Assembly (NCBI GenBank): GCA_002788675.1
Contig: PFRS01000005.1
Span: 131,731 to 195,730, forward strand
DNA from: Candidatus Pacebacteria bacterium CG_4_9_14_0_2_um_filter_40_15
GTDB lineage: Bacteria; Patescibacteriota; Microgenomatia; UBA1400; PJMF01
DNA length: 64,000 nucleotides
Reading direction: 5' to 3'
Below, one piece after another: positions 1,489-21,415 of this stretch. The position numbers and the translations under genes are program-made. The notes beneath the pieces were generated by a model, which did not search any database, was not told the DNA's origin, and saw only the letters and a list, made by a program, of their open reading frames with translations. Every line of letters begins with the position of its first letter. Position 1 is the stretch's first letter.

Positions 1489-1500
1489 ACTAAATGGCTA

Positions 1501-2019
1501 CTATTCTAATCTCTGAATTTTTATACTTCCATTGCTTTCAGACTTCCAAGTAATCCATATCTCATAGAAATATTTTTCAAAAAAACCATCTGCTCGAAAA
1601 GAAATGTATTCTTCAACATAATTTTTTACCACATGATCTTGCAGTAATGGACTTTGAAGATTGCATAAAAGCAATATTTTTCCAGAAGAGCCACCATACT
1701 TTCCTTGATTAAGTTTTGATAACTTTATTCTAATAGAATTCTGCAAATTCTCTAATGTACAAAGTTTGATATTTGCTTTACTGCTAACTATTTTATTTTG
1801 GGCATCTGACCACAATTTTTCAGCTTGGCATGAATTGTCATAAACACCTAATAATTCGATTGACAAGTTGTTGCTACAAATACAATCAGGTTCCAATGTA
1901 TTGGCATTTCCGGGTCTAATTAATTGATAGTTACAACTATGTTGGAAATTATATTTAGATAGAAATTCTTGACATACTGCTAGTTCATGTTGTTGCTTGA
2001 GATTTGAAACATTATTCAT
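1501..2019 (-). CDS. hypothetical Cys-rich protein
   Basis: 172-aa ORF with no recognisable motif; divergent from the replication-relaxation gene. Confidence 0.35.
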   Translation of the reverse strand: MNNVSNLKQQHELAVCQEFLSKYNFQHSCNYQLIRPGNANTLEPDCICSNNLSIELLGVYDNSCQAEKLWSDAQNKIVSSKANIKLCTLENLQNSIRIKLSKLNQGKYGGSSGKILLLCNLQSPLLQDHVVKNYVEEYISFRADGFFEKYFYEIWITWKSESNGSIKIQRLE

Positions 2020-2090
2020 TTCTATTCGTCTTTCATTGTTTACAACTGAATTATACCTCTAAATTTATCCATAATTTTGGTTTAAAAACT

Positions 2091-2108
2091 GTCCTAGCCC
2101 GCTAGGAC
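2091..2108. promoter_or_regulatory. 7-8 bp perfect inverted repeat gtcctagc-cc-gctaggac flanked by A/T runs, in the divergent intergenic region upstream of the replication-relaxation gene. Candidate operator, oriT or bidirectional terminator.
   Basis: Read directly: 'aaactgtcctagcccgctaggacaaaaaa'. Confidence 0.3.
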
Positions 2109-2235
2109 AAAAAATCAACACTTCACCAGATACAGATACAAATATTCTTTACCTCTATACCCTTATATAATAAGGGGAGGGAATGATACAATACACTTAC
2201 ACAAAAAAAATAACCTGCCCATAGACTAAACAACT

Positions 2236-3006
2236 ATGGATACCATAACAAATAAACAACTAGAAATTCTCAATCTAATATATCGCTTCCGTTTCCTAAA
2301 TAGAACTCACTTGCAAACTCTCCTCAATCATAAAGACACCAACCGAATTAATATCTGGCTTAAAGACCTTGCTAATAAAAACATCCTTGGTAGAATCTAC
2401 TCAACTAAGTTAAAAGAAAATACTAAACCAGCAATATATCATCTAGCTACTAAGTCTAGAAAAATACTTCTAAACCAAGAAGACATAAACGAAAAAATTC
2501 TCAAACGAGCCTACCGAGACAAAAACGCCTCACAAAAACTTATAGACCACTGCCTTTTTACTACCCACTTTTATCTATTACTTAAAGAACAATCACAAGT
2601 AAACAACCAAGAACTTCATTTTTATACTAAAACTGATCTAGTCGATCACACATATCTACCCTACCATCGCCCAGATGCATACATCGCTCTTGAAGATAAG
2701 GAGAATTACATCAAGCGCTACTTTCTAGAAATCATTGATGAGGGTACACCCCGGTTTATGCTTAGAAAAAAAATCTCACAATATGTTGATTACTTTGATG
2801 AAAACATTTGGAAAAATAGAACCTTACATAACAACCCATCACTATTATTCATCTGCCCCAATCAATATATTAAAGATTTCCTCAACAAACATATTGCACA
2901 AGTATTGGAGGAGGAAACTTCAGACTTACAATTTTTCTTAAGTCTGAAGTCGGACATTCAAGCAGAGGGCATTACGCCCTCTACTTGGCAACTGGTTGCA
3001 GAATAG
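2236..3006 (+). CDS. Replication-relaxation family protein (plasmid/ICE relaxase-like)
   Basis: N-terminus 'TNKQLEILNLIYRFRFLNRTHLQTLL' matches the characteristic start of replication-relaxation (PF13814-like) proteins. Confidence 0.5.
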   Translation: MDTITNKQLEILNLIYRFRFLNRTHLQTLLNHKDTNRINIWLKDLANKNILGRIYSTKLKENTKPAIYHLATKSRKILLNQEDINEKILKRAYRDKNASQKLIDHCLFTTHFYLLLKEQSQVNNQELHFYTKTDLVDHTYLPYHRPDAYIALEDKENYIKRYFLEIIDEGTPRFMLRKKISQYVDYFDENIWKNRTLHNNPSLLFICPNQYIKDFLNKHIAQVLEEETSDLQFFLSLKSDIQAEGITPSTWQLVAE

Positions 3007-3163
3007 AACTATTTTTCTTGCTCCGATAACACCTCATAACCTTTTTGCATCATTCTATTTACTAACACACTCACAATCCCTTGCATATCACTTCTGGTGT
3101 AGTCATCTTGACTATCAATTAGTTCTAAAATTTCACTCTCAAATTCGTTTGTAATCCTTGGAT

Positions 3164-3946
3164 CTAGCATGTTAATTCCTCCTCTAGTAATACTTTTAGT
3201 ACTTTTTCTACCGTTCCTATTGCCTTAGTAACGGCAAGCAAGGGATCTTCTGCATATTGGCTGATATAGTTCCAAGCGTTACCGGTTGTATCTGCAAAGC
3301 CGTATAAATCCATAAGTACCACACTAGTAAACTCTGCTATCGTTTCTTGACCTGCATGCTGTCCACCCTTGAGTTCTCCATCGATTCGCGCATGGATAGC
3401 GTGTGCTAATTCATGAAAAAATATTCTCTCATCATGCGTGCCTAATCTGATTTTACTGCCATCAGCCAAACAGTCCCCCAGCTTATTATCTGCAACCGGT
3501 GCATATTCAACCGCTACTCCTAACTTTTGGGCTATTTCGTACAGTGGTGGGTACTTTATTGGATCATAGACAGTAAGACCGCTCTGACCCTCTGTACTTG
3601 AAGCTGCAAATACTGGAACAGTAGAAAAACCGATACAAGTATATTTTTCTTCTAGTTCTTCGCTATCTTGTTTTCGCATTCTCACCATCACGGGACGCAA
3701 GATATATACTGCTTTTTCGCCTTTCTTGACCATTCTACCTGCCTGTTCCCATTGTCTGTATCCTCTGCAATCTAGTTCACCAGATTGAGCGTAAGCAAGT
3801 ACTTTGTTTGAAAGACTCCACCTCATTGCTGGTGCAGTATCATCCAAGTGAATCCGTGCCACATTTGTAATTGGTGACAAGTCACCAGTTTTGAACTGCT
3901 GCAATACTTTTTTCATACTTTCTTCTGCTCTATGAGAAAACTTCAC
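3164..3946 (-). CDS. ArdC-like antirestriction protein (N-terminal ssDNA-binding DUF1738-like domain + zincin HEXXH metalloprotease domain)
   Basis: 'GYRQWEQAGRMVKKGEKAVYI' resembles the ArdC N-domain. 'FFHELAHAIHA' supplies the HEXXH zinc motif. Typical cargo of conjugative elements. The gene looks GC-richer than its flanks (visual impression only). Confidence 0.45.
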   Translation of the reverse strand: MKFSHRAEESMKKVLQQFKTGDLSPITNVARIHLDDTAPAMRWSLSNKVLAYAQSGELDCRGYRQWEQAGRMVKKGEKAVYILRPVMVRMRKQDSEELEEKYTCIGFSTVPVFAASSTEGQSGLTVYDPIKYPPLYEIAQKLGVAVEYAPVADNKLGDCLADGSKIRLGTHDERIFFHELAHAIHARIDGELKGGQHAGQETIAEFTSVVLMDLYGFADTTGNAWNYISQYAEDPLLAVTKAIGTVEKVLKVLLEEELTC

Positions 3947-4231: not shown

Positions 4232-6253
4232 CTACTCATACCGCAGTGCATTAAGGGCAGAAATTTTAGTGGCACGCTTGGCAGGATAAATGCCAGTAAG
4301 TATTCCAACCAATAATGAAAGAATAATAATTACCACAGTAAAAGAAGCTGGTATGTAAGAAATATCAACATATCCAACACCTTGAAAAACGGCAAATAGA
4401 GATAAGACCAGCCCAGCTAACTTACCAGCTAAAAACCCGGTTATAATACCTAGTAATCCACCCAAGATACCCATAATCATTGACTCTGTTAAGAATAATT
4501 CCTGGACTTCTGAAGATCTCATACCCATAGCTTTCATCAAACCAACTTCACGCGTTCTTTCTAATAAAGAAACTGTGAGAGTATTAAACATACCAAGTGC
4601 GGCTACTCCCAGGGCAATCATCCCCAGTACTGCCAAAATTACTCTAGTGGTTGAAAATAATGAATTAATTTGTTCCACTGTATCTGCTACAGATCTTGTA
4701 ACATAGCCCATTGCCTCGATTTGATGGCGAGTAGCTGACAAATCATCTTTATCCTTAACCACAACTTTTACCTGAGAATAATTTGTTATTCCAAGCGTGC
4801 GCAAATCCATAAATGGAACATAGAAGATAGGTGTTTTTTCCTCTGGTGTTACTCCTACAATTGTATATTCGGCAGGTGAAGATTCAATTTTTTCTGAAGA
4901 ATCTGAAAGTAACTCGCCAACAACTACAAATGAAGCGGTAAATTTCTTGCCAACTGCTTCATTTTCAGTAATTCCTAGTACCTGCAACATCGCTCTGTTT
5001 ACTACTGCTTCACGCTTAGCAGATCTTGCTAATTTAACTGTTTTGGTTTTTTCTGTTGTAACTTCTCCAGATTCCGAGGCAATCTCAACCCACTCCAATG
5101 AAGTTCCATTTGAGTCAGTTGTACCTGATATTTCTGTTGTGTCTCCCAAAACTGTACTAGAATTAATAGCTCCGTCCTCTGCAATAGTCATGCCAATTTC
5201 TGCAATGTAGCCTTCTAGCGAAAGTTGTTGTCCATCTTCACCACGCATTACCATATGAGTACCATCTTCACAGTCACCCTGCGATTCCGGGTCACATGAC
5301 TCTAGTTTCCACAATAATACAGAAGTTTTTACCCATTTTCCTAAAATAACATCATCTTTGGTTTTTCCAGAAGTACCTGCATCTGTATCACTTACATACT
5401 TCTCACCCCAAACTTCAGATCCAGAAATAGAATCAGCAACCTTCTTGGTATATCCTAAAATTTCTGAATCAGTTGTTGCATCTGCACGAACTTTAAGCCA
5501 AGTTCCTGAATCAATGGCAAAGGTAACATCTCTAATTTCTTCACCCCTTACATCAAAAATATTGTCTGCTTTCTCACCCATAATTTCAGTCACAATACTG
5601 CCAGCATCAGTGACTATTTCATTACTATCAAAAATCTTTCCTGTAGATGGTTGAATTGCAGACTGACGCAAATAATCAGAGGTAACTCCATAAACCGCCA
5701 TATCAGAAACAGAACTTTGATAGTTAACTCTACCTACCACTGCTATTAATGGTAAAGACATCTCAATTGCACTAATTTCTGAAAAATCATTCAAGGTTTT
5801 ATCTGTAATCTTGGCTTTACCTCCAGCTTGTGAAGAAACATCAGTTTGACGCATTTCTTCAAGTCTCGCCACACGGGTAACTACCAATTCTTGTAATCCA
5901 TATCCAATGGAAACCAAGAAGACAATTGAACCAATTCCAATCATCATGCCACCAATGGTAACAGTGGTTCTAGTGCTTTTTGATTGCATATTACGTATGG
6001 CAAGCTCGATTAAGTTAATTCTGGAGATTGTTTTATTGCGTTTATAGTCAAAAACCTTCACCGCTTTAGAATACACTTTGTGTAAAGGTGTGCTTAATTT
6101 TGGAGATATAAAACGAGAAATAATTGGCAATCTCAATATCCATGAAATAACTCTCGCAACTAAATAGAGCAAGAGTAGAAGAATAAATGTGGTTGTTTGG
6201 AACAAAGCTCCAGGAAAATTGCTGAATAGATTTTGTTTTAATATTCTAAACAT
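4232..6253 (-). CDS. ABC transporter permease, FtsX/MacB family, with a very large extracytoplasmic domain
   Basis: C-terminal FtsX signature 'LLERTREVGLMKAMGMRSSEVQELFLTESMIMGILGG' and N-terminal 'INLIELAIRNMQSKSTRTTVTIGGMMIGIGS'. The likely start is the ATG at 6253-6251, which overlaps the ATPase stop in an ATGTTTAG junction; the ORF track extends to 6304. Confidence 0.7.
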   Translation of the reverse strand: MFRILKQNLFSNFPGALFQTTTFILLLLLYLVARVISWILRLPIISRFISPKLSTPLHKVYSKAVKVFDYKRNKTISRINLIELAIRNMQSKSTRTTVTIGGMMIGIGSIVFLVSIGYGLQELVVTRVARLEEMRQTDVSSQAGGKAKITDKTLNDFSEISAIEMSLPLIAVVGRVNYQSSVSDMAVYGVTSDYLRQSAIQPSTGKIFDSNEIVTDAGSIVTEIMGEKADNIFDVRGEEIRDVTFAIDSGTWLKVRADATTDSEILGYTKKVADSISGSEVWGEKYVSDTDAGTSGKTKDDVILGKWVKTSVLLWKLESCDPESQGDCEDGTHMVMRGEDGQQLSLEGYIAEIGMTIAEDGAINSSTVLGDTTEISGTTDSNGTSLEWVEIASESGEVTTEKTKTVKLARSAKREAVVNRAMLQVLGITENEAVGKKFTASFVVVGELLSDSSEKIESSPAEYTIVGVTPEEKTPIFYVPFMDLRTLGITNYSQVKVVVKDKDDLSATRHQIEAMGYVTRSVADTVEQINSLFSTTRVILAVLGMIALGVAALGMFNTLTVSLLERTREVGLMKAMGMRSSEVQELFLTESMIMGILGGLLGIITGFLAGKLAGLVLSLFAVFQGVGYVDISYIPASFTVVIIILSLLVGILTGIYPAKRATKISALNALRYE

Positions 6254-7034
6254 GTTGTGTATTCCCAGATTTATCTTCAGATGTTTTAAGATCACCATTA
6301 CCACGTTTGCTTTTTAACTCAGTAAGTAAGGCTTGTTTATCTGATTCATCATATTCACCCACAACTTCACCATTAAACATCTTAATAGCTGTCTTAGCGT
6401 ATTTAATGTACTCAAGATCGTGGGTAACCATGACTATAGTTTTAGCGGTTTTTTTGTTTAGTGAGGATAAAAGTTGCATGAGTTCTTGACCAGATTCATA
6501 ATCAAGATTTCCAGTTGGCTCGTCGGCAATAATTACTTCTGGGTTTGAAACCAGTGCTCTGGCTAGTGAAACTCTTTGTTGTTGTCCACTAGAAAGTTCT
6601 GTAGGAATATAGTTAGACCATTCACTCATTTCTACCATATCCACAACTTCACGAGCTTTTTTAAGTGATTCAAGCTTACTAGCACCCAAAAGCAATAAAG
6701 GGAAAGCAACATTTTCAACAACAGTTAATGATTTAATCCAGTTTGGTTGCTGATACACCATACCAATGTGTTCTTTTCTAAAATCAGATCTATCATCTTC
6801 ATTATTTGAAGTATATAAATTTTTACCAGAAAAAAGAACGCTACCTTTATTTGGTGCCTCAAGGCCTAAAATCGTATGAAGTAGCGTTGATTTACCACAT
6901 CCAGATGGGCCAAAGATAACTAAAAAATCGCCACTGTTAATTTCTAGATTGATATCTTTTAAAACAGGCACATTTGCGCTAGCCACTACAAATGATTTAA
7001 AAAGATTTTGAACTTTAAATAATGCCTGATTCAT
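6246..7034 (-). CDS. ABC transporter ATP-binding protein (MacB/LolD-like)
   Basis: Walker A 'GPSGCGKSTLL', ABC signature 'LSGGQQQRVSLARAL', Walker B 'IIADEPTGNLD'. Confidence 0.8.
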   Translation of the reverse strand: MNQALFKVQNLFKSFVVASANVPVLKDINLEINSGDFLVIFGPSGCGKSTLLHTILGLEAPNKGSVLFSGKNLYTSNNEDDRSDFRKEHIGMVYQQPNWIKSLTVVENVAFPLLLLGASKLESLKKAREVVDMVEMSEWSNYIPTELSSGQQQRVSLARALVSNPEVIIADEPTGNLDYESGQELMQLLSSLNKKTAKTIVMVTHDLEYIKYAKTAIKMFNGEVVGEYDESDKQALLTELKSKRGNGDLKTSEDKSGNTQHV

Positions 7035-7035
7035 C

Positions 7036-10000
7036 TTAGTTTTTTCCTAGTCTACTAAGGAAGCCAAAGGCTTCTTGTAAGTTGCTAATTACTAGGTTAA
7101 GGGCGTTTTCGGTGGTTTTTGGTGTAATGGTTACGGTGTCTATGGATTTAGCAATGTTCCCCGCGGTATCTTTAGACAACGCTCTTAAGTGATAGACCTT
7201 GCTTGGAGTAAGTCCTGAAATAATTACTAAATGATTGTAGGTAAGATTACTGTCTTCTTGAGTTTTTTGAGCATAAGTAACCCCCGTACCTTCACCAAAC
7301 TCGACTTGAGATGTTGCTGGTTCATCGGTGTTCCAAGAAACGATTAATTGAGCAGTGGATTCCTGTGCGGTACTCGCAGTTTGGGGAATAACTGAACCCT
7401 CCACAAAGAGTTTGCTAATTTGAGCAGGTCTGGTGTCGGTAGCAGTTGTAAGTCTTTGAGAGTCAGAAACTGCTTGGTTGCCAATTTTATCTCTGCCTTT
7501 GACCACCAAATTGTAGTTAGTTTGCGGAGCCAATCCTCGAATTATCATTTGATGCTCTCCTGAAATGAGATCAATATTAACCTCATCTTTAACTGCAGAC
7601 GGGTTGTTTTCTGGATAATAAGAAATAATAGAAGAAACTGCTGTGTTGGTGTTCCAAGTTATGAGCAGAGTTGATTGGGCAGTGTTAGACACTTGTTGGA
7701 TACGAACACCACTGATTTTAGGACGTGGTAGAGTTTCAAAATCTAGTACAGTTCCTTCATACTCTTCATCTTCACTATCAAAAGTATTTATTTTGTAGTA
7801 ATATTTCGTCCCATCTGCCAGACCTGTAAGCTCGGCAGTATAGGTAGTTTCGCTTGTTGAGGTAGACATCTCTTTAACTCCACCAAAATCAGAACTAGTT
7901 CCATAATAAACCTTAACTTTAGAGGCATCTTTGGAAGTAAACTCTATAATAGCGGTATCCAAACCTATATTTTTTGCGACAACATCTTTAACTGTTGGAG
8001 CAGGAGAGGTAGTAAACTCGTTTTCTTCACTGCTTCCAGTATTACCATCTTCATCTGTCCATTTGGCTTTGTAGTAATATTTTGTTCCTGGTTTCAGGCC
8101 AGTAAGATCAATTGAATGATTAGTGACTTGGTCGGAGTTACTTGGTTCAACATCATTGTACTTACCCCTACTAGTACCAAACTGAATTTTACTATCAGAA
8201 GTTCTAGAAGTTGACCAGCTTATTGTAGCTTTTTTGGTAGTAATATCACTTACCTCAGGCTCTGATTCTAAGCTTGGAGCAGATGTCCACTTGCCTGTTG
8301 GGGTAATAGTAACTGCATTTGTGCCACTGCTAGTGGCATTAGCGCCGTCTTTGGTATAAATCTTGTAATAATATTGTGCAGATGATGGAGTGGTATCTAC
8401 GTATGATATGCCACTAGTAGTTCCTACCTGCGAAAAAGTAGTGCCATCACTAGAGCGGTGTACTAAATAGGTTAGGTTTCCTGCTCCCTGATAGCTTGGG
8501 GCTGTCCAAGTAAGAGTTACATTCCACTGTTCTTGAGATTTAATAGAAGAGTCGGACGAAACTAGATTAGCAACATTATCTGGATCAGTAGAGTTAAGAG
8601 TAAACGTGCCGGTTATATAGTTAGATGGTGAATAATTAGGAGTACTCGCATCATCAATGGCCACTACATAAACTGTGTTAGTGCCTTTGTTTACATTTGG
8701 CAAAGCCCCAGCTGAAACTGTTGTACTGGTACCGTTATCAATATAGGTAGTGCTGTTACCTTGCAGAGTCGATAGGGTTGATGGTGGAGAAGTATTGACC
8801 ATGTAGTAATAATGTGTCACGGCTTGACCAGCACTTGGTGTTGCTTCTGGCCACGAGAGTGCAAAGCTGTTGGAGGTAGATGTTGATGGGGTGACTGTTA
8901 CATTCTCAAGCTCATCAAAAGCAGGAGCAGCCCCTCCATAAGACAAGTTACAGGTTCTATAAGTAGAAGCCGATGAAATATTACCAGAAGCATCAACTGA
9001 TCTGAAGTAGACAATATTATTTCCAGAAATAATTGAAGAACCATCTTGTTCCTGTGTGAGTGTCCGTGAGGTTTCACTAGTTGGCAGATAGTTATTTACA
9101 CCCAAGACCGATTCTGTGGTAGTTCCAAGCCAAGTTCCTGCAGTAGAGTTAATCTGATACTGCCAACCCAAAACGCCAGAATTATCATCTACTGTAGCGG
9201 CACTTCCAGATGTTGGCCAAGAAAAATTCATATCTGCCACATTAGAAAATGATCCAGAAGCACAAGAAATATATGATGTATTGGTTGGTGTAATGTTATC
9301 GAATCTAAATTGGAACTGCTCACTGGCACCTCCAAAAACTTGGCCTGCATTATCTATGGCTTTAATGTTTAAATAATAGGGATCACTAGAAGTAGTCAAC
9401 CATGGACTACCCTTGTAACTTGAGGTAGCAAAATCAATACTGGTGCTAGAGACTATAAACTGACAAGTAGTACCAGCGGTAGATAACGGGCTAGTTCCCA
9501 ACAATCCCTTACTTGTGGCAGGATTACCTGCACTATCAGTTCCTAAATACAAACAGTATCCTTTCAAACCACTCCCCCCAGCGGTATCAGCGCCAGCAGT
9601 CCAGGAAAAGTATGGTGACTCGTTCTTTGTCCAATCATTGGAGGACATACTTGTGCCGCCATTCGATCTAGTCATGGCAAGTGCTGAGGCGTTGGTATCT
9701 GGGGCAGTTGTATCGGTGGTTAAACCAATCGAGACATGAGGTAAATATGGCACATCAGCCCCACCTGAGGTGAATATTGCTTTGACAGAAATTTTGGTAG
9801 AAGTGATTGATAAAGCTTGCATTGCAGTTTGCGTTAACTGAGCAGGAGTATTCACATGGGTAGTAGTATTGCTAGCTGTTTGCCAATTTGCGCCGTCATA
9901 GTACTTCCAACTACCACCACTTTCACAAGTAGAACCATCATCGGTACAAAGTTGGTAGGAGATACTACTATTCGTGCCAGTTGTAGCATCCTGAGTACAA

Positions 10001-11613
10001 GTAGAACCAGAAAGAGTGCCTTCACAAAATGTATCCCAGCTGGCTACTAAAGCGTTAGAATAGGCAGTTGTTGTGTAAACACTATATTCACCTTGTTTGA
10101 TTAAGGAAAAGTCATCTAAAACAACAGTTTTGCCAGATTTAACACTCACACCATATTCGCGTGACTCATTAGCACCCACAACTGATCCAGACAATTTCCA
10201 CCAACCACTGCCCATATCGGTATAGGTAGTGCTCACAGTTGAGCCATTGTAGTAAAGTTCTGCAATGAGAGCATTAACAGTACCACCTTCACTACCACTG
10301 GTGTTATCGTACACAAAAACAGATAAATCATAGGTAGATGTATCACCTACATTGATAGATTGATACACCTTACCATCGGTGACAGAACCAATAGAAACGG
10401 CGTTTCCGCCGGCCGCTGAGCGTCCGGCATTAGAGGAGAAAGATTGCGAGATTGCTACAGGATCACTGGCGCAACGAAACCCGAGATTGCCGCCCTGACT
10501 TCCTGACGTATTGTACAAAAAGAGAGCGAAAGCCCCAGCATACGTCCCATTAACCCAATTACCGCCGCGGAGGAACGCGTTGTTCAACGCACCACCATAT
10601 ACTTGACCCATTCCATAGGTAGACAAATAACTGGCATTTGAAGGACCGTACAAATCACGTGCCCCACTAGCCAAATTAGCACTATTCCATTCAACCCAAC
10701 CGGCAGTAGTGTTAATAGCAGTTGATTGAATATCGCTATTCCAGTCCCAAACGTTACCAGACATATCCCAAATTTCACTACCATTGCTCAGGGTGTACTT
10801 AGCTTTGGTGTCACGTCCCGTGCCATATTCCGGGTCTGTGCCGTTGTAGCCAACGCTATCCAGCGTACCAACATTCCCCCTAAACATCCCACCCCCTGCA
10901 GCTACTGTTGAACCAACTGTGGCATTTGCCCAGTTGGCAGTTTGGCTTTCGGCATTTCTTGTAATCGTCATCCACTCTGCGTTGCTAATTAAATGGGTGC
11001 CATTAGGACACGAGGCAATAGCTTGAGTTTGGGTAATGTGGACAATTGGAGCACCATTGGCAGTAGAAACTACTTTCTCTTTATCAAAGCCTACAATATC
11101 TCGGTAATCCAAGCCTAAGCCAGAATCAGCTACGGCACTACAGGCTGCGGCAGTATCTCCGTCTCCATCTGTGGTACAGTCATATTTGGCTTCGTACTGC
11201 ATGGCTAAAAAATTATCTGTTGAAAAAGTAGCATTGCCAGGAATTTCCACCCAGCCGGTATCTGGCATTGCCAGAGTATTCCACGAAGTAACATCTGAAG
11301 CAAAACTGGGATTAGCAAATTCATTTGCTCCTACAGCTCCACCAGTTGGTTGAGCTCCACTGTTGTCTATAGTTGTTAAGCTGGCGGTGTAATCGCCAGC
11401 AGTAGAGGCATCTAGTGTCCAAACTTTGGCTGAGTCGTTAAGTGCAAATATTTGAGGTAGTTTTCCAGAGAGTGCGCCATACATACCTATAGCGAGTCCT
11501 GAGGCCATAAAAAAAATAGCTACCAAATTAAACTCGATTCTATTAAACTGAAACCGAGGTTCTAAAAGGTACTTGCTAATTTTTTTTATTATATTCACTA
11601 ACCTTACTTTCAT
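7036..11613 (-). CDS. Giant membrane-anchored surface protein and DGR target: N-terminal TM, FGE-sulfatase/C-type-lectin-fold domain ('WDMSGNVWDWNSD', 'NLGFRCAS') carrying the variable repeat, then ~1100 aa of Fn3/Ig-like repeats
   Basis: Hydrophobic segment at residues ~28-48. FGE/SUMF1-type motifs around residues 270-385. Recurring Fn3-like 'GTKYYYK' and 'YYYKI' motifs in the C-terminal half. The VR at 10462-10579 falls in this gene. Confidence 0.7.
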   Translation of the reverse strand: MKVRLVNIIKKISKYLLEPRFQFNRIEFNLVAIFFMASGLAIGMYGALSGKLPQIFALNDSAKVWTLDASTAGDYTASLTTIDNSGAQPTGGAVGANEFANPSFASDVTSWNTLAMPDTGWVEIPGNATFSTDNFLAMQYEAKYDCTTDGDGDTAAACSAVADSGLGLDYRDIVGFDKEKVVSTANGAPIVHITQTQAIASCPNGTHLISNAEWMTITRNAESQTANWANATVGSTVAAGGGMFRGNVGTLDSVGYNGTDPEYGTGRDTKAKYTLSNGSEIWDMSGNVWDWNSDIQSTAINTTAGWVEWNSANLASGARDLYGPSNASYLSTYGMGQVYGGALNNAFLRGGNWVNGTYAGAFALFLYNTSGSQGGNLGFRCASDPVAISQSFSSNAGRSAAGGNAVSIGSVTDGKVYQSINVGDTSTYDLSVFVYDNTSGSEGGTVNALIAELYYNGSTVSTTYTDMGSGWWKLSGSVVGANESREYGVSVKSGKTVVLDDFSLIKQGEYSVYTTTAYSNALVASWDTFCEGTLSGSTCTQDATTGTNSSISYQLCTDDGSTCESGGSWKYYDGANWQTASNTTTHVNTPAQLTQTAMQALSITSTKISVKAIFTSGGADVPYLPHVSIGLTTDTTAPDTNASALAMTRSNGGTSMSSNDWTKNESPYFSWTAGADTAGGSGLKGYCLYLGTDSAGNPATSKGLLGTSPLSTAGTTCQFIVSSTSIDFATSSYKGSPWLTTSSDPYYLNIKAIDNAGQVFGGASEQFQFRFDNITPTNTSYISCASGSFSNVADMNFSWPTSGSAATVDDNSGVLGWQYQINSTAGTWLGTTTESVLGVNNYLPTSETSRTLTQEQDGSSIISGNNIVYFRSVDASGNISSASTYRTCNLSYGGAAPAFDELENVTVTPSTSTSNSFALSWPEATPSAGQAVTHYYYMVNTSPPSTLSTLQGNSTTYIDNGTSTTVSAGALPNVNKGTNTVYVVAIDDASTPNYSPSNYITGTFTLNSTDPDNVANLVSSDSSIKSQEQWNVTLTWTAPSYQGAGNLTYLVHRSSDGTTFSQVGTTSGISYVDTTPSSAQYYYKIYTKDGANATSSGTNAVTITPTGKWTSAPSLESEPEVSDITTKKATISWSTSRTSDSKIQFGTSRGKYNDVEPSNSDQVTNHSIDLTGLKPGTKYYYKAKWTDEDGNTGSSEENEFTTSPAPTVKDVVAKNIGLDTAIIEFTSKDASKVKVYYGTSSDFGGVKEMSTSTSETTYTAELTGLADGTKYYYKINTFDSEDEEYEGTVLDFETLPRPKISGVRIQQVSNTAQSTLLITWNTNTAVSSIISYYPENNPSAVKDEVNIDLISGEHQMIIRGLAPQTNYNLVVKGRDKIGNQAVSDSQRLTTATDTRPAQISKLFVEGSVIPQTASTAQESTAQLIVSWNTDEPATSQVEFGEGTGVTYAQKTQEDSNLTYNHLVIISGLTPSKVYHLRALSKDTAGNIAKSIDTVTITPKTTENALNLVISNLQEAFGFLSRLGKN
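10398..10411 (-). promoter_or_regulatory. GC hairpin cggcg-tttc-cgccg (GAAA tetraloop on the coding strand) about 50 nt 3' of the VR; possible DGR homing hairpin/cruciform
   Basis: Read directly. DGR VRs are typically followed by a GC-rich stem with a 4-nt loop. Confidence 0.25.
10462..10579 (-). repeat. DGR variable repeat (VR), 118 bp, inside the target gene
   Basis: Aligns base-for-base with 15455-15572. Of 17 mismatches, 16 fall where the TR has A on the coding (minus) strand. The 21-nt 3' end 'gggtttcgttgcgccagtgat' is identical in both copies (IMH-like). Confidence 0.8.
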
Positions 11614-11840: not shown

Positions 11841-12623
11841 TCATGAACTTTTTCTATCAATTGAACTCAATAACTTTTCAAGGTAGGTTTTTACATACTC
11901 AAATAGGCTTCCAAGTTTCTCGCGCTCACCTATTGGTACAAAGGGTCTCAAGTCTTTGATAAACTCATCCTTAGAAAAATCTTTCAACCTAGATATTAAT
12001 CTATCCACTTTAAAAACTTCATCATAATATTTCAACTTATTTTGAATCAAATCCAAATCAAATTTTGCACCAAGCTCTAGTAAGATCCAAAGATCATATA
12101 TATCTCGATGCTTTTCTCTCCTGAGTATTGCTCTGATTTTTTCTGCCAATATTTCGTTCTTACTCAAAGAGTTAACAAAACTCTGCACAATAACAGGGTA
12201 TTCTGATTCAATAATGCTTTTTGTAGGCTCTAAAACATTCTCCCTCATTGAAAAATCTAATTTTACGAAAACCGGATTTTTCAAAGATTGAACATTTGCT
12301 GTTAAAAGATATGTTTTTCCAGTTATGGTTTTTCTTTCCTTAAAGGTAAATGGATATTGATTTTCAATTTTACTGAAAAACTTATTGATTAGTTTTATAA
12401 ATACACCTTCATCAACTTGAACAGTAAAATCTAAATCCTCTGAAAATCTTTGTCCACCATAAAGTAAACGAATAGCAGTACCTCCCTTGAAGTAAATATC
12501 TCTTGAGAAACCTTCTTCATATAATTCTTTCAGAAATGTGATCTGAACAAATTCACGAGCCACAATTGATTCATTAATTTTATACTTTTTGGATAACTGA
12601 TTTAGCTGTGTTTGATTTATCAT
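11841..12623 (-). CDS. abiEii: AbiEii/AbiGii-family nucleotidyltransferase toxin (type IV TA)
   Basis: 'YFKGGTAIRLLYGGQRFSEDLDF' is the hallmark KGGTA nucleotidyltransferase motif of AbiEii/DUF1814. Confidence 0.6.
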   Translation of the reverse strand: MINQTQLNQLSKKYKINESIVAREFVQITFLKELYEEGFSRDIYFKGGTAIRLLYGGQRFSEDLDFTVQVDEGVFIKLINKFFSKIENQYPFTFKERKTITGKTYLLTANVQSLKNPVFVKLDFSMRENVLEPTKSIIESEYPVIVQSFVNSLSKNEILAEKIRAILRREKHRDIYDLWILLELGAKFDLDLIQNKLKYYDEVFKVDRLISRLKDFSKDEFIKDLRPFVPIGEREKLGSLFEYVKTYLEKLLSSIDRKSS

Positions 12624-12660
12624 TTTAGACCCTTAATTTTGGAGTGATAACGACATAAAT

Positions 12661-13308
12661 TTAGCTGGTATAAAAAGTGCAAGGCCATAAATATTTATCC
12701 GCTAATTCCTGAATACTTTTTGACAATTTATCTGGTAGTAGTTTAAAATATTCTTGGAATTTTGCCTTATCAATCGCAGAATAATCCATTTCATCTAAGT
12801 ATTGCTTCGTCTTTAAACCTTTGGCAATCATATACAGCTGATCTAACAAAGCTTTTTCTGGTAGAGCTATTAATGCATCTTCTTCTTTAATATAACCAGT
12901 AAATAAACTCGTACTTATTTGAGAATAGGTATACATTTTTTCTAAAACTTCTTTTTTTTGGGTAGATTTTGTTGTCACTGAGGTGATCTCTACGGGAAAT
13001 TGACTTAAAATTCCATAGTAATTAAGAGCTGTCTCAAATGAGATATATGAAGGCGAATATAAAAATTGAGCAATTTCAAAATCTGAAACTTCTGCATTTC
13101 CCAACAAATATTTGCCTTTTTCAAGAGAAATCAGTATTTTTTCATCAAGAAATCTTTTAATAAGATCCTCAAGTGTTCTTTTCGAGTCAATTTCAAGTAA
13201 GTTTTGAAGATCTTTGGTTAAAAAGGCTTTTTTACCCGAATCATTGATTGCATTTAAATATTTATACGTTGACATATACCACGGATTATACGTGGTTAAG
13301 CATATCAT
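12661..13308 (-). CDS. abiEi: AbiEi-family antitoxin/transcriptional regulator
   Basis: 'YISFETALNYYGILSQFP' matches the conserved AbiEi C-domain motif (Y-x-S-x-E-x-AL-x-x-xG). Lies directly upstream of abiEii. Confidence 0.5.
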   Translation of the reverse strand: MICLTTYNPWYMSTYKYLNAINDSGKKAFLTKDLQNLLEIDSKRTLEDLIKRFLDEKILISLEKGKYLLGNAEVSDFEIAQFLYSPSYISFETALNYYGILSQFPVEITSVTTKSTQKKEVLEKMYTYSQISTSLFTGYIKEEDALIALPEKALLDQLYMIAKGLKTKQYLDEMDYSAIDKAKFQEYFKLLPDKLSKSIQELADKYLWPCTFYTS

Positions 13309-14089
13309 GTCAAGGGTGAATCTTTTCTCAATTAAGATAACACAAAATGCCTAAACACTATTTATTTTCCGTAAGTAAATAATAGAGTAAGTAGGCATTG
13401 GCATGTTGCAAATGACCTTTAATTGATACTTTTGATTGTGTTAGCTCAAACTCGCTCAATTTCCCTTGTAAAAATTTCTTTTGTTTTTTCCTATACTTGC
13501 GTTGCATGTGCCTCAAAGTATCACCTCTCACCAAAACGTGATCATAAAAAATTCTATACCCCACAAACGGCACTCCATCAGTGACATTTTTAATTGTGTT
13601 TTTTTTGGGATGCAAACTCAAGCCCAACTTTCTATTTAAAAATTTCTCAATATCTTTATTTAACTGCTTCAGCTTCTTTTTATCTGGATGAATAATCAAA
13701 AAATCATCCATGTATCGAGCATACCAACGCTGTTTGAGGGTATGTTTTACGTATTGGTCAAGCTCATTTAGATAGATATTGGCAAAAAGTTGACTGGTTA
13801 GGTTTCCTATTGGTAAGCCTTTTCTTTCCCACTCCAATATAGGTGCATTTTCCTGATGGTTATTTTGATCACTGTTATTGAATTCAAAAAGTGAAAGTTG
13901 TTCGGGAATAGTTTTTTTAAAACTATTTTGGTGGATATGACTTGAAATATTCACCATATCTGCTTTTACTGAGTGAGTAACCACAATTCTTCTAAGAAGC
14001 TCGTTGGTTCTTGGGCAAGTTATTGATTTTTGCAGGATTTCTAGCAAAGTATCCCAGTGAATGTTTTGAAAATACTTATGAATATCACA

Positions 14090-14837
14090 GGGTCTTGTGA
14101 CGTTTAGCATACGTTAGTGTGTTAATATGGTTGTAAGATCAATGAAAAATAGATATTGCAATCGATCACGACTTAGTGAGCACAAATTTAGACAACTTTT
14201 ACAATGTTTTTGTGACGATTTTGACACAGTTTTAACAGCAAAAAGTGTTGGAATTTCTCGTGAGCATGTAACCAAATATTTTGGTGCAATTCGTTTTAGA
14301 ATTGTCGAATTAAGTCAGTTAGAGGGTAAATTTTCAGGAGAAGTTGAGGTAGATGAAAGTTACTTTGGAGCAAAAAGAATTCGAGGTAAACGAGGACGTG
14401 GTGCCAGAGGAAAAATACCCGTTGTTGGGGTATTAAAAAGAGGTGGAAAGGTTTACACAAAGGTAGTAAAAAACTGTTCGAGAGAACAAATACTGCCAAT
14501 TTTGAAAGGTAAAATACTTGAGGAATCAACCGTGTTTACAGATGGTTGGAAAAGCTATCATGGATTGATTTATCAAGGATTTCAGCACTATAGAATCTAT
14601 CATTCAAAGAATGAATTTGCTCGAGGAAAAAACCACATTAATGGTATTGAAAGTTTTTGGAGTTTTTGCAAAAGACGTATGGCAAAACAAAATGGTGTGA
14701 GAAAAGATAAATTTCTGCTACACTTAAAGGAATCTGAGTTTAGATGGAATCATAGAAATGAAATGTATAAAGTACTTTTGGACGACTTAAAATTTAACCC
14801 ATTGACGCTCTAAACGTCACAAGACCCTATCACATTG
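14090..14837 (+). mobile_element. IS1595-family insertion sequence (~748 bp) with 18-bp terminal inverted repeats GGGTCTTGTGACGTTTAG and flanking 7-bp direct repeat TATCACA (14083-14089 and 14838-14844)
   Basis: TIRs and TSD read directly at both junctions. The transposase ORF lies inside. Confidence 0.7.
14127..14813 (+). CDS. IS1595-family (ISXO2-like) DDE transposase
   Basis: 'EVDESYFGAKRIRGKRGRGARGKIPVVGVLKRGGKVYTKVV' is the characteristic IS1595 transposase core (EVDE-Y-GG-K ... G-K). Confidence 0.7.
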   Translation: MVVRSMKNRYCNRSRLSEHKFRQLLQCFCDDFDTVLTAKSVGISREHVTKYFGAIRFRIVELSQLEGKFSGEVEVDESYFGAKRIRGKRGRGARGKIPVVGVLKRGGKVYTKVVKNCSREQILPILKGKILEESTVFTDGWKSYHGLIYQGFQHYRIYHSKNEFARGKNHINGIESFWSFCKRRMAKQNGVRKDKFLLHLKESEFRWNHRNEMYKVLLDDLKFNPLTL

Positions 14838-15245
14838 CAACACATAGAGTTCTCTTTCTTTTCCATATATACATCTAGCAGCCATGAGAAATTTTTTGAT
14901 TCTGCTTGCTCCAAAGTGTGTTCCCTTATATTTGCGACAAGCATACGAATCAAAAATAAACTTTTTTTCAAATATTGGCTCAATTTGTGCCACAAGGGAG
15001 TGCTGAATTATCCTATCTTTAAATGCAGGCGCAGAAATTCTCCTTGTTTTGGGCTCAAAAATTGTAAAATTGGTGTAGGGCTGAGGATAATATTCACCAG
15101 ATAAAAGAAGCTGTCTTAACTTTAATATATTGCTCTCAATAAAGTATTCATACTCCGCAACACTAATTCTGTCTCTTTTGCCTTTTCTTGCTTTGTAAAA
15201 TGATTTGAGTAACATCTCAAAACTAGAAATTTTATCAAACATCAT

Positions 15246-15454
15246 CTTACATAGTATCCTTATAAGCCCACTTTCCTCATAACTAAAAACATATGTTGCT
15301 AGCTATGAGGATACAGGCTTTTTGTTTTCCCTCAAGAAATTTATATGCTTGAAAGAAAGAGAAAATCTTGTGATCATAATGATCCAGGACATATATCCTT
15401 AAACATATGCCACTCATCTGGCGAAGCCAAATCTTACATGGACTTAATATTAGT
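15246..15454 (-). other. DGR spacer region between TR and RT, containing an imperfect hairpin (cctcata...tatgagg)
   Basis: Its position corresponds to the structured TR-RT spacer of known DGR RNAs. Confidence 0.3.
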
Positions 15455-15572
15455 ATCACTGGCGCAACGAAACCCGATATTGTTGTTCTGATTTCCTGTT
15501 GTATTGTTCAAATTGAGAGCGAAAGGTCCAGCATTCGTTCCATTATTCCAATTACCGCCGCGGAGGAACGCG
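15455..15572 (-). repeat. DGR template repeat (TR), 118 bp
   Basis: Non-coding copy of the VR. In the VR frame it reads AFLRGGNWNNGTNAGPFALNLNNTTGNQNNNIGFRCASD, with AAY (Asn) codons exactly at the positions that differ in the VR. Confidence 0.8.
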
Positions 15573-15605: not shown

Positions 15606-15947
15606 CTATACCACTTTCATCCAAGCTCGTAGCATTCGAGCAATCTCATTCATTTTTTCTGCACCAAATGCATATTGTTTGATACTTTTAAATTTAAGAT
15701 CTTTAGTCAGTCGTAATAATATTCGCAAAGTATCTAGGTCATTAGAAATTAATTGTTGTAATTTTTGTCTTTCTAACCCTTTTAGACTATTGGCCTTTGA
15801 AACTGTTATAACTAAAGCAATTACCCTTTCTTCAATTGCTTTGCCTAAAACCATTCTATGACTTTTAGGGATACGGTTTACTAAAGGATAAAACCAAAGT
15901 GCTTGGTCATACGTTTTTTGGAAAATAAGTAATTTTTCACACATCAT
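15606..15947 (-). CDS. avd: Avd-like accessory variability determinant (four-helix-bundle family)
   Basis: 113 aa. 'IFQKTYDQALWFYPLVNRIPKSHRMVLGKAIEERV' fits the Avd / 23S-IVS four-helix-bundle family. Sits immediately 5' of the TR on the same strand. Confidence 0.55.
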   Translation of the reverse strand: MMCEKLLIFQKTYDQALWFYPLVNRIPKSHRMVLGKAIEERVIALVITVSKANSLKGLERQKLQQLISNDLDTLRILLRLTKDLKFKSIKQYAFGAEKMNEIARMLRAWMKVV

Positions 15948-16219: not shown

Positions 16220-16552
16220 ATGAGAAAACTCGTATTTCTTCAAAGTATATTTCTTACCTCTTTAGTTGTTGCAACTCCAGCATTTGCACAAACTGCCGAA
16301 GTTGGACAAATTCAATCATTCATCCAAAGTGTGATTCAAGTTATGGTCACGCTCTCTGGCTTTATTGCAGCAGGTTTCATAGTCTGGGGTGGCGTTGGCT
16401 ACATTACTAGTTCAGGAAACCCTGAATCACTCGAAAAGTCTAAAAAAACAATTTTATACTCAGCCATTGGCCTCACCCTTGTGCTTGGAGCATTCGTTCT
16501 TTCCAATATGGTTAGCCAATTAGCATCCACTGCTTTTGGTGCAGGAATGTAA
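16220..16552 (+). CDS. VirB2/TrbC-like pilin-type small membrane protein (signal peptide + two hydrophobic helices)
   Basis: Signal peptide 'ATPAFAQT', then two hydrophobic stretches. First gene of the T4SS-like operon. Confidence 0.4.
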   Translation: MRKLVFLQSIFLTSLVVATPAFAQTAEVGQIQSFIQSVIQVMVTLSGFIAAGFIVWGGVGYITSSGNPESLEKSKKTILYSAIGLTLVLGAFVLSNMVSQLASTAFGAGM

Positions 16553-16567
16553 GCGAAGGGATATGTA

Positions 16568-17869: not shown

Positions 17870-18372
17870 GAAGCCGAGTCATACCCGCTCAAATAACCAC
17901 TGTAGAAGACAAAATTGCAGGTGATTTTAGTCTGACGCAAATTATGTTGTTACTGTTACCAGTCTTAATTGCTTCGTTTATTTACGCAATCCTTCCACCA
18001 AGCATGAGCTTTGTACTCTACAAACTAATCTTGGCGAGCATTTTTGCCATTGCAAGCATCACTCTGGCAATTAGAGTTAAGGGCAGAATTATTGCAAGTT
18101 GGCTTGTGGTCTTGATCCGATACAACATTAGGCCAAAATACTATGTATTCAACAAAAACTCTGCTACAAATCGAGAAATTATTCAACCTGAGGTTGAGAT
18201 TATCACTGTTGAAGAAAAAGAAACTAAAAGCGCTGATCTAAAAAGTATTCAGAACCTTGATATCAAAGATATTCTCAAACTTCGACACATTCTTGATACA
18301 ACAGATTTCAATCTAACCTACCGCTCCGGCAAGAAAGGAGGACTCAATGTGGCCTTTGAAAAAGTCTCTTAG
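17866..18372 (+). CDS. Small two-TM membrane protein (VirB3-like position)
   Basis: Hydrophobic N-terminal half; located between the VirB6-like and VirB4-like genes. Confidence 0.3.
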   Translation: MRSRVIPAQITTVEDKIAGDFSLTQIMLLLLPVLIASFIYAILPPSMSFVLYKLILASIFAIASITLAIRVKGRIIASWLVVLIRYNIRPKYYVFNKNSATNREIIQPEVEIITVEEKETKSADLKSIQNLDIKDILKLRHILDTTDFNLTYRSGKKGGLNVAFEKVS

Positions 18373-21392: not shown

Positions 21393-21415
21393 CCATATAT
21401 TGATATAATTTTAGT

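Follow-up and report, generated by a model that had tools for sequence, protein, structure and literature searches.

A probable DGR target of giant size in CPR bacteria, with an internal variable region and candidate cis elements inside the reading frame

The variable region (VR) of DGR targets is located almost universally at the C-terminus of the protein (PMC8144416, PMC5758913), a position that the surveys explain by the target-site signals being kept out of the coding sequence. In BPP-1-type systems, a hairpin 4-34 bp past the VR is experimentally required for homing (Guo et al. 2011, PMC3240598). Internal VRs, in the account given by Wu et al., are rare exceptions known from phage tail fibres and from one CLec2 case (Wu et al. 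2018, PMC5758913). Among characterized targets, TvpA of Treponema denticola (2y3c), TaqVP of Thermus aquaticus (5vf4) and Mtd of a Bordetella phage (1yu0) have the same fold as the protein described here. All four share a VR formed by the last ~40 lectin residues, an ending of the G-F-R-C-A-S-D type, an AAY-rich template region (TR) and the avd-TR-RT arrangement. However, the three known proteins end with the VR and their hairpin is intergenic, whereas the new target continues for 1140 residues and its candidate cis elements are translated.

The window (the whole 64,000-nt stretch of a Candidatus Pacebacteria contig that was analysed) contains this target gene on the reverse strand. We consider it likely, at roughly 80%, that the locus is a genuine DGR with a giant CPR surface protein as its target, an internal VR, cis signals embedded in the ORF and an RT that has been inactivated in this genome. 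The parts of the target gene are as follows.

7036..11613 (-): DGR target gene, an open ATG-initiated ORF of 1525 aa
11464..11538 (-): N-terminal hydrophobic segment, aa 26-50, the sole hydrophobic segment of the target protein
10459..11064 (-): FGE-type C-type-lectin (CLec) domain; Pfam match at aa 184-382, folded unit from ~aa 60-140
10459..10579 (-): VR, aa 345-385, the ~40 residues that close the lectin domain; 121-nt repeat of the TR
10399..10458 (-): translated post-VR segment, aa 386-405; candidate target-recognition (IMH-like) sequence and hairpin, from exceptional synonymous-site conservation
10408..10428 (-): imperfect GC hairpin GCCGG(A)CGC-TCA-GCG(G)CCGGC, 30 nt past the VR end, at the site of relatives' perfect hairpins
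10072..10449 (-): CBM-like β-sandwich, aa ~389-514, packed against the CLec domain in the structure model
7114..10071 (-): Ig/Fn3-like β-sandwiches, about nine in number, aa ~515-1500, from structure prediction and Pfam
7048..7107 (-): C-terminal peptide NALxLVIxNLxxxFGFL, aa ~1503-1522, conserved; low-confidence predicted helix

NCBI lists the same protein (100% identity) as PIR63233.1 and under related entries, as a hypothetical protein of Candidatus Pacebacteria MAGs. An earlier note on this DNA, made from the letters alone, had proposed an internal VR in a giant protein, and the VR indeed spans residues 345-385 of the 1525-aa ORF, ending at residue 385 rather than at the protein C-terminus. 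The FGE-type domain that it saw closing with the VR at about residue 385 was recovered as a Pfam FGE-sulfatase match (residues 184-382, 26.6 bits versus a gathering cut-off of 23.3) and contains both GNVWDWNSD and NLGFRCAS. The proposed Fn3/Ig-like modules after the VR hold as an all-β-sandwich tail, but the first domain past the VR is CBM-like and not Fn3. The tail is predicted to be all-β (pLDDT 87.6) and matched strings of Ig/Fn3 domains. Pfam matches to fn3 and Pur_ac_phosph_N are confined to residues ~1010-1500 (the last ~5 tail domains), and the GTKYYYK motif occurs at residues 1176 and 1268.

Pfam, Foldseek and phmmer all support a CLec fold for the VR-bearing domain. The lectin and CBM-like domains were modelled together with high confidence (pLDDT 90.8, pTM 0.89; 88-98 pLDDT at their junction). 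The best PDB matches of the lectin model in Foldseek were TaqVP (5vf4), Mtd (1yu0) and TvpA (2y3c), along with FGE-like enzymes and EgtB, and phmmer matched the sequence of the domain to FGE. A search of viral structures in BFVD returned tail fibres of a generic FGE/CLec kind and tail proteins that bear a CBM, and nothing more specific. The one observation that points to a putative exposed binding face is the entropy of the AAY-coded positions, which reaches 3-3.5 bits amid invariant scaffold residues.

The remaining DGR genes lie upstream of the target, and a transporter gene pair lies downstream.

15606..15947 (-): accessory variability determinant (avd); Pfam bAvd, 64.3 bits, E = 1.7e-17
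15452..15572 (-): TR with abundant AAY codons, flanked by avd and the RT gene; 121-nt direct repeat with the VR
14835..15245 (-): DGR reverse transcriptase (RT) gene, 5' part, to YVLQCD
14090..14827 (+): IS1595-family insertion sequence (IS), 738 bp; Pfam DDE_Tnp_IS1595, E = 4.4e-30
13358..14089 (-): DGR RT gene, 3' part; Pfam RVT_1, IGNLTSQ and YMDD motifs
12661-13308 (-): 215-aa ORF upstream of the AbiEii gene, in the antitoxin position; no Pfam match
11841-12623 (-): AbiEii toxin gene, inserted between RT and target, within 11841..13308
6246..7034 (-): ABC transporter ATPase; Pfam ABC_tran, start codon 1 nt past the target stop codon
4232..6304 (-): permease of the FtsX/MacB type; large extracytoplasmic domain, Pfam MacB_PCD and FtsX

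The TR and VR differ at 18 positions, 17 of them at TR adenines (Fisher p = 3e-10), with nine A>G, six A>T, two A>C and one C>G changes, and have in common the invariant 21-nt 3' VR end GGGTTTCGTTGCGCCAGTGAT. Adenine-directed change is also seen across 15 distinct TR/VR pairs of the family, which altered 198 of 473 adenines versus 19 of 1252 other bases. A strain variant (P0125) differs from the window protein at 22 residues; 13 of these fall at positions 352-377, and all but one of the 13 (12/13) sit at TR codons containing adenine. The pattern of these substitutions indicates that the VR was diversified in the past. Most other assemblies carry the same VR as the window. Searches of the 64-kb window found neither a third TR/VR copy nor further DGR targets, and no tRNA or Rfam features.

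The RT gene is interrupted between YVLQCD and IHKYF by the IS1595-family element, and an intact RT is not encoded at the locus. The element has perfect 18-bp inverted repeats, a transposase gene at 14127-14813 and a 7-bp TSD (TATCACA) at 14083-14089 and 14828-14834; taking it out in silico, together with one of the TSD copies, recovers a 380-aa RT that has the IGNLTSQ and YMDD motifs. The RT is split alike in L056 and in 13 similar places, and the contigs of L057 and L058 end at or beside the IS. Furthermore, at least 23 contigs, which stem from several projects, encode the identical 1525-aa protein. The split RT together with a VR that is identical across many assemblies suggests that the IS inactivated the enzyme and that the DGR is currently frozen here, at least as it looks from the DNA. 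It is conceivable that another RT, encoded at a different place in this genome, acts in trans.

Homologs of the target, ~1500-1600 aa long and aligned at full coverage, fall into over 100 clusters with identities of 46-76%. More than 90 full-length Patescibacteria homologs (94 aligned) share the layout from end to end, and the complete genes of the family encode 1119-1576 residues beyond the VR. The architecture, flagged earlier as unusual, does depart from the norm. When the CLec+CBM region was searched against representatives at 50% identity, 69 of the best 150 had the canonical layout, with a C-terminus no more than 5 residues away from the VR end, in agreement with the surveys (PMC8144416, PMC5758913), and 38 continued past the VR into a CBM-like domain. 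The internal-VR layout is a known rare exception, and the giant FGE-type family of CPR bacteria with its ABC/FtsX partner is a further form of it.

The order Avd-TR-RT-target-ABC ATPase-FtsX/MacB permease was conserved at all loci with enough flank but one, and is seen in the window, L002-L006, L023/24 and L049-L055. The ABC ATPase and FtsX/MacB permease adjoin the target wherever downstream flank is available. In the homolog L009, the ABC/FtsX pair is retained but no RT lies within 10 kb, so the giant protein can exist without an adjacent DGR. Across Patescibacteria, the module is found in ICE-like, island and plain chromosomal contexts. T4SS linkage recurs (window, L002, L006, L051 and L055), but a strict linkage was rejected, as T4SS genes are absent in L052 and L054. 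Phage genes occur near the target only in L050 among the loci examined. Our literature search for a link between DGRs and FtsX/ABC returned nothing relevant. We tentatively envisage the module as a self-contained and horizontally mobile 'programmable adhesin' of CPR bacteria, often carried by conjugative/T4SS elements. The MacB-type transporter would handle the giant protein or be coupled to it mechanically, and the lectin head would select the host or partner cell for attachment of the episymbiont; this idea is speculative and may well prove wrong.

The VR being internal to the ORF, any cis elements of the DGR would be translated. Synonymous-codon identity in the family alignment (~1480 codons) peaks at 0.82 versus a gene mean of 0.39, and the top 15 windows all begin at residues 373-398. 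Within the gene, synonymous conservation is strongest at the 3' VR end, the ~22 nt that adjoin it and the hairpin ~30 nt downstream; residues 386-405, inside the peak, lie beyond the TR homology. The hairpin, translated as G-R-x-A-A-G, exceeds all other 24-mers of the gene in GC content (83% versus 42.5%) and contains the rare codon GCG. At the family site, the window hairpin has an A·G mismatch; an overlapping alternative (CGGCG-GAAA-CGCCG, 10398-10411) is perfect but sits 47 nt from the VR, outside the published 4-34 bp. Both an invariant 3' VR end and a GC-rich downstream hairpin, the sequence marks of a DGR target site, are present in the gene.

Of 17 distinct sequences linked to an RT, 14 have a GC hairpin at the family site, which is perfect in 12 and imperfect in 2. 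Its stems have compensatory changes across relatives and a loop codon that varies freely, and 82% of cells are paired versus 24-66% in slid controls, although the stem encodes Gly/Arg/Ala and the covariation, coming from related sequences, represents few independent events. Gly/Arg/Ala codons are intrinsically GC-rich. No convincing GC hairpin was found in L019, L051 and L055, which are RT-linked and have adenine mutagenesis. Hence, the hairpin may not be obligatory for diversification, and we rejected it as a family-wide universal. It is also missing from three homologs without an RT in 4-10 kb of upstream flank (L008, L009 and L010), two of which keep the Gly-Arg, and no hairpin is present in the TR flank.

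Several other explanations bear on the post-VR region. The hairpin and the synonymous conservation could serve a role outside the DGR, for example as an mRNA structure that paces translation and folding or as an internal regulatory element. Such a role would fit the location of the element at a domain boundary and the three loci with DGR activity but no hairpin, and the link to homing in this family is drawn from sequence. It is nonetheless unlikely, for the conservation peak runs on unbroken from the 3' VR end, the hairpin is absent both beside the TR and from the homologs without a nearby RT, and its position, GC-richness and small loop resemble those of the experimentally required DGR hairpin (PMC3240598). 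The polypeptide could instead be processed after the VR, releasing a canonical C-terminal-VR lectin from the Ig/Fn3 tail. Asp-Pro bonds are chemically labile, and one is conserved at residues 384-385 (D in 82/94 and P in 73/94 homologs), precisely where relatives of the lectin domain commonly terminate. However, the Asp-Pro codons belong to the segment conserved at the DNA level and can be retained without any need of cleavage. Moreover, a Pfam-type domain search of the target found no protease or autoprocessing domain, and the predicted rigid unit of CLec and CBM-like domains, with its confident junction, argues against a cleavable linker, making processing a distinctly improbable explanation. 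An assembly or annotation artefact fusing a canonical DGR target to a downstream Fn3 protein can be dismissed almost entirely. Shorter database entries of 1100-1175 aa do exist, but one of them (P0121) comes from a 7-kb contig and aligns with the C-terminal 1110 residues. The recurrence of the identical protein on many independent contigs, the alignment of the 94 homologs throughout and the 38 representatives that pass from the VR into a CBM-like domain refute the fusion and uphold the earlier note's reading of one continuous gene.

The orientation of the protein invites a similar weighing. The membrane anchor that the earlier note proposed is supported by the single N-terminal hydrophobic segment (aa 26-50; ~23-25 residues, KD up to 1.99) behind a net-positive N-terminus (7 K/R versus 2 D/E). 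The segment carries G39-x-x-x-G43 and Y45, which are conserved across the family. A GxxxG motif with a Tyr is typical of a retained, interacting TM helix, and its conservation favours such a helix at the N-terminus of the target. We infer topology, surface location, adhesin role and ABC/FtsX interplay from such sequence features and from gene order. Most likely, the target is an adhesin or receptor held in the membrane in type II (N-in) orientation. The lectin and CBM head would then sit by the anchor, in line with the membrane-proximal variable face that the earlier note suggested, with the string of β-sandwiches beyond it and the MacB-type transporter as its partner. The reverse geometry would have the N-terminal signal cleaved or used for export only, the C-terminal peptide holding the protein (docked, for example, to the extracytoplasmic domain of FtsX or to the envelope) and the Ig/Fn3 domains as a stalk that presents the lectin and CBM at an outward tip. 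Adhesins such as those of the Gram-positive MSCRAMM type have this order of signal, binding head, Ig-like repeats and short C-terminal element, which the target resembles. The invariant ABC/FtsX adjacency, the strong conservation of the C-terminal NALxLVIxNLxxxFGFL peptide (F1516 in 94/94 and L1507 in 91/94 homologs) and a conserved F-A-L-N-D motif just past the hydrophobic segment, which could hold a signal-peptidase site, also speak for an outward tip. We regard it as possible but doubtful given the long positive region ahead of the hydrophobic segment and its conserved GxxxG and Tyr, the low confidence of the modelled C-terminal helix and the lack of LPXTG or any other known C-terminal sorting signal in the target.

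In the mechanism that we propose for the DGR, TR RNA would be reverse-transcribed with misincorporation opposite adenines, and the mutated cDNA would replace the VR and rewrite about a dozen AAY-coded positions on the putative ligand-binding face of the lectin. DNA-level selection would hold the cis signals (the invariant 3' VR end, the ~22 nt after it and the GC-rich hairpin) within the ORF. More speculatively, the family would be a natural proof of fully ORF-embedded DGR signals, in which case DGRs could be made to diversify a domain inside any protein. The family is a populous and conserved cellular counter-example to the C-terminal-VR rule, with the IMH-adjacent sequence and hairpin translated, and provides a concrete set of sequences for probing the minimal target-site needs of DGRs; it also bears on their engineering for internal-domain diversification. 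Furthermore, the conserved five-gene module links a MacB-type transporter with a hypervariable lectin, a connection relevant to CPR surface biology and host recognition.

The closest precedents for the layout are the phage tail fibres Ig1/Ig2 (Wu et al. 2018, PMC5758913) and PC_00003 (Roux et al. 2021 Supplementary Fig. 8, PMC8144416). As in the target, an internal VR is followed by Ig-like domains, and the internal VR implies that the IMH overlaps the coding sequence. Unlike the target, these proteins are structural parts of viruses, their Ig-like folds number one or a few, and their VR domain was not recognised as a lectin. The target is cellular and clearly of FGE type. It has a hydrophobic anchor at its N-terminus and about ten domains past the VR, its ABC/FtsX partner is fixed, and the genes of its family reside in CPR chromosomes or ICE-like regions rather than encoding virus structural proteins. 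LdtA of Legionella pneumophila, as summarized in one survey, is likewise a lectin-fold surface protein diversified by a cellular DGR on an integrative conjugative element (PMC5758913). However, that summary presents a small lipoprotein with a C-terminal VR and describes no ABC/FtsX linkage, whereas the target is a giant multi-domain protein. The family hairpin resembles that of BPP-1 (PMC3240598) in its GC-rich stem and small loop, and lies ~30 nt downstream of the VR. In BPP-1, the stem acts through its structure and not its sequence, and the family stems have compensatory changes. Yet BPP-1-type stems have 7-10 bp and a 4-nt GRNA loop past the stop codon, in contrast to the translated stems of mostly 5-8 bp with 3-nt loops in the family. 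Typical CPR targets (clade 2, Roux et al. 2021, PMC8144416; Paul et al. 2017 cited there) come from the same lineage and have CLec-type VRs. According to what that survey says of them, they usually have no TM or other conserved domain, whereas the family described here adds an anchor, a CBM-like domain and an Ig/Fn3 array.

The 1525-residue target protein is encoded by an open, ATG-initiated reading frame (7036–11613, minus strand) that contains one copy of a 121-nt direct repeat (10459–10579); the other copy lies at 15452–15572. Compared on the coding strand, the copies show 18 mismatches. One is C>G; at the other 17 (A>G at 9, A>T at 6, A>C at 2) the 15452–15572 copy has adenine, a base that makes up only 35 of its 121 (Fisher p = 3e-10). 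The 15452–15572 copy is also a string of AAT/AAC codons. The adenine-biased mismatches and the codon run therefore identify this copy as the template region (TR) of a diversity-generating retroelement (DGR) and the copy inside the gene as its variable region (VR), covering residues 345–385. No third copy of the repeat is present in the window. The module comprises the following features:

15606–15947, minus strand: Avd gene upstream of the TR (Pfam bAvd, E = 1.7e-17)
15452–15572, minus strand: TR
14817–15245 and 13358–14110, minus strand: reverse transcriptase (RT) gene in two pieces, downstream of the TR (Pfam RVT_1)
14090–14827, plus strand: IS1595-family element of 738 bp between the RT pieces (transposase Pfam E = 4.4e-30)
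10459–10579, minus strand: VR, within the target gene
10408–10428, within the target gene: hairpin GCCGG(A)CGC-TCA-GCG(G)CCGGC, 30 nt after the VR end
10398–10411, within the target gene: perfect hairpin CGGCG-GAAA-CGCCG, overlapping the previous one

The earlier note had described the target as a formylglycine-generating-enzyme (FGE)-type lectin domain ending with the VR, followed by a tail of Fn3/Ig-like modules. The two motifs that it quoted, GNVWDWNSD and NLGFRCAS, are in the translation, and Pfam FGE-sulfatase matches residues 184–382 at 26.6 bits (curated cut-off, 23.3). An AlphaFold model of residues 60–520 from 69 family sequences (pLDDT 90.8, pTM 0.89) has as its closest solved structures the DGR variable proteins TaqVP (5vf4, E = 5e-7), Mtd (1yu0) and TvpA (2y3c), followed by FGE-type enzymes; a sequence search also finds formylglycine-generating enzymes. 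The second domain (residues ~389–514) matches carbohydrate-binding-module (CBM) β-sandwiches. The model of residues 386–1525 (pLDDT 87.6, pTM 0.40) is all-β and resembles the Ig/Fn3 domain strings of fibronectin, contactin and gp130, and Pfam fn3 or Pur_ac_phosph_N recognizes only the last ~5 tail domains. Proline-rich linkers suggest ~10 domains after the VR. The description is therefore right, except that the first domain after the VR is CBM-like.

A fusion of two genes, the artefact that the earlier note had warned of, is contradicted by identical proteins on many contigs and by homologues that align end to end in many clusters. The protein is matched at 100% by hypothetical proteins of Candidatus Pacebacteria MAGs, and more than 100 homologous clusters (46–76% identity, 1500–1600 residues, end-to-end coverage) come, where the source is named, from Pace-, Davies-, Roizman-, Moran- and Dojkabacteria. 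Complete family genes encode 1119–1576 residues after the VR. Across 94 aligned full-length members, the positions coded by AAY in the TR (352, 354, 355, 358, 365, 367, 368, 372 and 374–376) reach entropies of 3–3.5 bits, with N/S/Y/D/G/A/T among the residues found, and the scaffold positions W353, G360, F362, L366 and G-F-R-C-A-S 378–383 are near-invariant. Across 15 distinct TR/VR pairs from the fetched loci, 198 of 473 adenines are changed versus 19 of 1252 other bases.

When residues 60–520 were searched exhaustively against 1.84 billion 50%-identity representatives, 139 proteins reached E ≤ 1e-30. Of the 150 best matches, 69 have the canonical layout, in which the match ends at the VR-end position no more than 5 residues from the protein's own C-terminus, and 38 have the internal layout, with the match extending into the CBM-like domain. 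By these counts, the internal type makes up a sizeable sub-lineage within a domain family whose members usually end at the VR. In a further 14 the match stops at the VR end and other sequence follows, some with several lectin repeats. Three representatives (P0165, P0230 and P0208; 900–1900 aa) are tandem arrays of the VR-type lectin, with 6–8 separate lectin-matching stretches per protein.

The target of the Bordetella phage DGR requires a GC-rich hairpin/cruciform downstream of the VR, and related elements have 7–10 bp stems with GRNA loops 4–34 bp from the VR (Guo et al., 2011; PMC3240598). In the window, no 24-mer of the 4578-nt gene is richer in GC than the one at the post-VR hairpins (83% versus 42.5%; third-position GC, 32%), which include the gene's only perfect GC hairpin and use GCG, its rarest Ala codon (5%). 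The TR flank has no comparable hairpin. At the same site, relatives carry GGCCGC-GAA-GCGGCC (L002, L003, L005), the GGCCGC stem with a GGA or GCA loop (L006, L016), GGTCGC-GAA/GCA-GCGACC with a compensatory C:G to T:A change that turns Ala into Thr (L049, L022), 8-bp versions (L017, L021, L054), CCGGC-GTA-GCCGG (L004, L050, L026) or a version with a 4-nt loop (L052). The hairpin is thus perfect in 12 of 17 distinct RT-linked sequences, imperfect in two (window, L053) and missing in three (L019, L051, L055) despite clear adenine mutagenesis. It is also missing from L008, L009 and L010, where RT and Avd are absent within 4–10 kb of upstream flank and Gly-Arg is kept in two; the DGR may have been lost in these lineages, which would make them useful negative controls. 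In the 17-sequence alignment, pairing holds in 82% of cells versus 24–66% in slid controls, with compensatory changes at three stem positions, which offers moderate support for the hairpin because the sequences are related.

Synonymous sites provide an independent test of the same segment. Across 15 family genes aligned by codon, the frequency with which a codon is shared, given a shared amino acid, averages 0.39 gene-wide and peaks at 0.82 at residue 382. All 15 top 10-codon windows (of ~1400) start at residues 373–398, and those starting at residues 376–400 rank at or above the 98th percentile. Because the TR homology does not extend to residues 386–405, homogenization by homing cannot explain their conservation; the simplest reading is selection acting on the nucleic acid (DNA or RNA) itself. 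Hairpin conservation and the synonymous peak together indicate that the family's target-recognition signals are translated, with a role in homing proposed by analogy.

The IS1595-family element that splits the RT is bounded by perfect terminal inverted repeats of 18 bp and flanked by a 7-bp target-site duplication (TATCACA). Once the element and one copy of the duplication are removed, the RT is whole again, with 380 residues that read ...YVLQCDIHKYF... and bear the IGNLTSQ and YMDD motifs. Among the matches listed, the same split RT is present in at least one independent contig (212 kb, JGI), and two further assemblies terminate at or beside the element. The exact 1525-aa protein, hence the same VR, is on at least 23 contigs. 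With its RT split and its VR shared in this way, the DGR therefore appears to be switched off and the VR frozen in this lineage. It was active earlier: the differences from a near-identical strain variant (P0125) concentrate at adenine-containing TR codons: 13 of 22 fall at positions 352–377, 12 of these at such codons. The thirteenth (position 361) is the window's sole non-adenine change, where the variant retains the TR-encoded proline. The module in this genome has been caught after IS-mediated RT inactivation.

The order Avd, TR, RT, target, ABC ATPase and FtsX/MacB permease is kept at all loci with enough flank (window, L002–L006, L023/24, L049–L055) but one, L009 (labelled Saccharibacteria), where ABC/FtsX is retained and RT is absent within 10 kb. 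The window's ATPase starts 1 nt past the target stop codon. The RT–target gap at times holds a variable extra gene and has repeatedly taken up small accessory genes: AbiE in the window (11841–13308, an AbiEii toxin gene plus an upstream ORF) and L051 (AbiEii), HepT/MNT in L055, an NYN nuclease in L053 and Bro-N in L049.

The wider context varies. Genes typical of integrative conjugative elements (T4SS coupling protein, relaxase-like, ArdC, pilin, VirB4-like) accompany the module in the window, L002, L006, L051 and L055; L049 lies in a serine-recombinase island, L050 adjoins phage genes, and L052 and L054 have housekeeping neighbours and no conjugative linkage. The window's set (16–3946 and 16220–23350, flanking the module) includes a T4SS coupling protein cut at the window edge, Replic_Relax, ArdC-like, VirB4-like ATPase, M23 peptidase and KAP NTPase genes and a pair of T4SS pilin genes, of which one carries a fused TrbL-like domain. 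Elsewhere in the window, a near-identical intergenic sequence of ~70 nt (CACAATATATAAGACGTAGTTCC...GGGTCACA) occurs three times ~1.3 kb apart (27262–27332, 28604–28674, 29869–29939), bracketing a 314-aa ORF that matches nothing in Pfam, along with a Fic-domain gene; the copies have no Rfam match and only a weak predicted stem-loop. A 797-aa ORF (37065–39458), unrelated to the DGR, has two ATP-grasp/D-Ala-D-Ala-ligase-like halves (Pfam Dala_Dala_lig_C and ATP-grasp_4, two stretches each).

The DGR-rewritten lectin face, CBM-like domain and Ig/Fn3 string suggest a surface protein that binds ligands or cells. Directly downstream there is invariably the pair of ABC ATPase and MacB/FtsX permease, which suggests a functional partnership in export, membrane extraction or mechanotransmission, as for other MacB-type systems. 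The only hydrophobic segment of the protein (residues 26–50; Kyte-Doolittle maximum 1.99) is preceded by an N-terminus bearing 7 K/R against 2 D/E, and there is no LPXTG motif in the 1525 residues. With G39-x-x-x-G43 and Y45 conserved in the family, this long segment looks like a retained, interacting transmembrane helix, which would put the lectin head in the membrane-proximal position proposed by the earlier note. A C-terminal peptide (NALxLVIxNLxxxFGFL) is conserved equally and allows the opposite, adhesin-like geometry with the head at the tip, against which stands the resemblance of the N-terminal segment to a retained helix. Processing, the note's other suggestion, finds no support, and the model shows the lectin–CBM junction as a confident rigid unit; the conservation of Asp-Pro 384–385 is explained by the DNA-level constraint on the segment.

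Published surveys agree with the earlier note that C-terminal VRs dominate. They form the great majority in one catalogue, whose internal exceptions belong largely to the Ig class, with a single CLec2 and a single multi-VR CLec1 besides, and where an internal VR means that the target-site recognition signal (IMH) must overlap coding sequence (Wu et al., 2018; PMC5758913). A 2024 survey places 87% of VRs in the gene's end section (PMC11661182). The C-terminal position has been called near-universal and ascribed to a need of cis elements for freedom from coding constraints (Roux et al., 2021; PMC8144416), and the hairpin preference has been speculated to steer diversification to gene 3′ ends (Guo et al., 2011; PMC3240598). 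The principle of an internal VR has precedent in the published cases. In the DGR papers examined, no family is described that is cellular, FGE-type, anchor-bearing and ABC/FtsX-linked and has ~10 downstream domains. What is new is thus a conserved family of DGR targets in the candidate-phyla radiation with an internal lectin VR, putative cis elements that are translated and an ABC/FtsX pair. It has a parallel in two clades of phage tail-fibre targets, in which an internal VR is likewise followed by Ig-like folds (Roux et al., 2021, Supplementary Figure 8; PMC8144416), whereas the present family is cellular and FGE-type.
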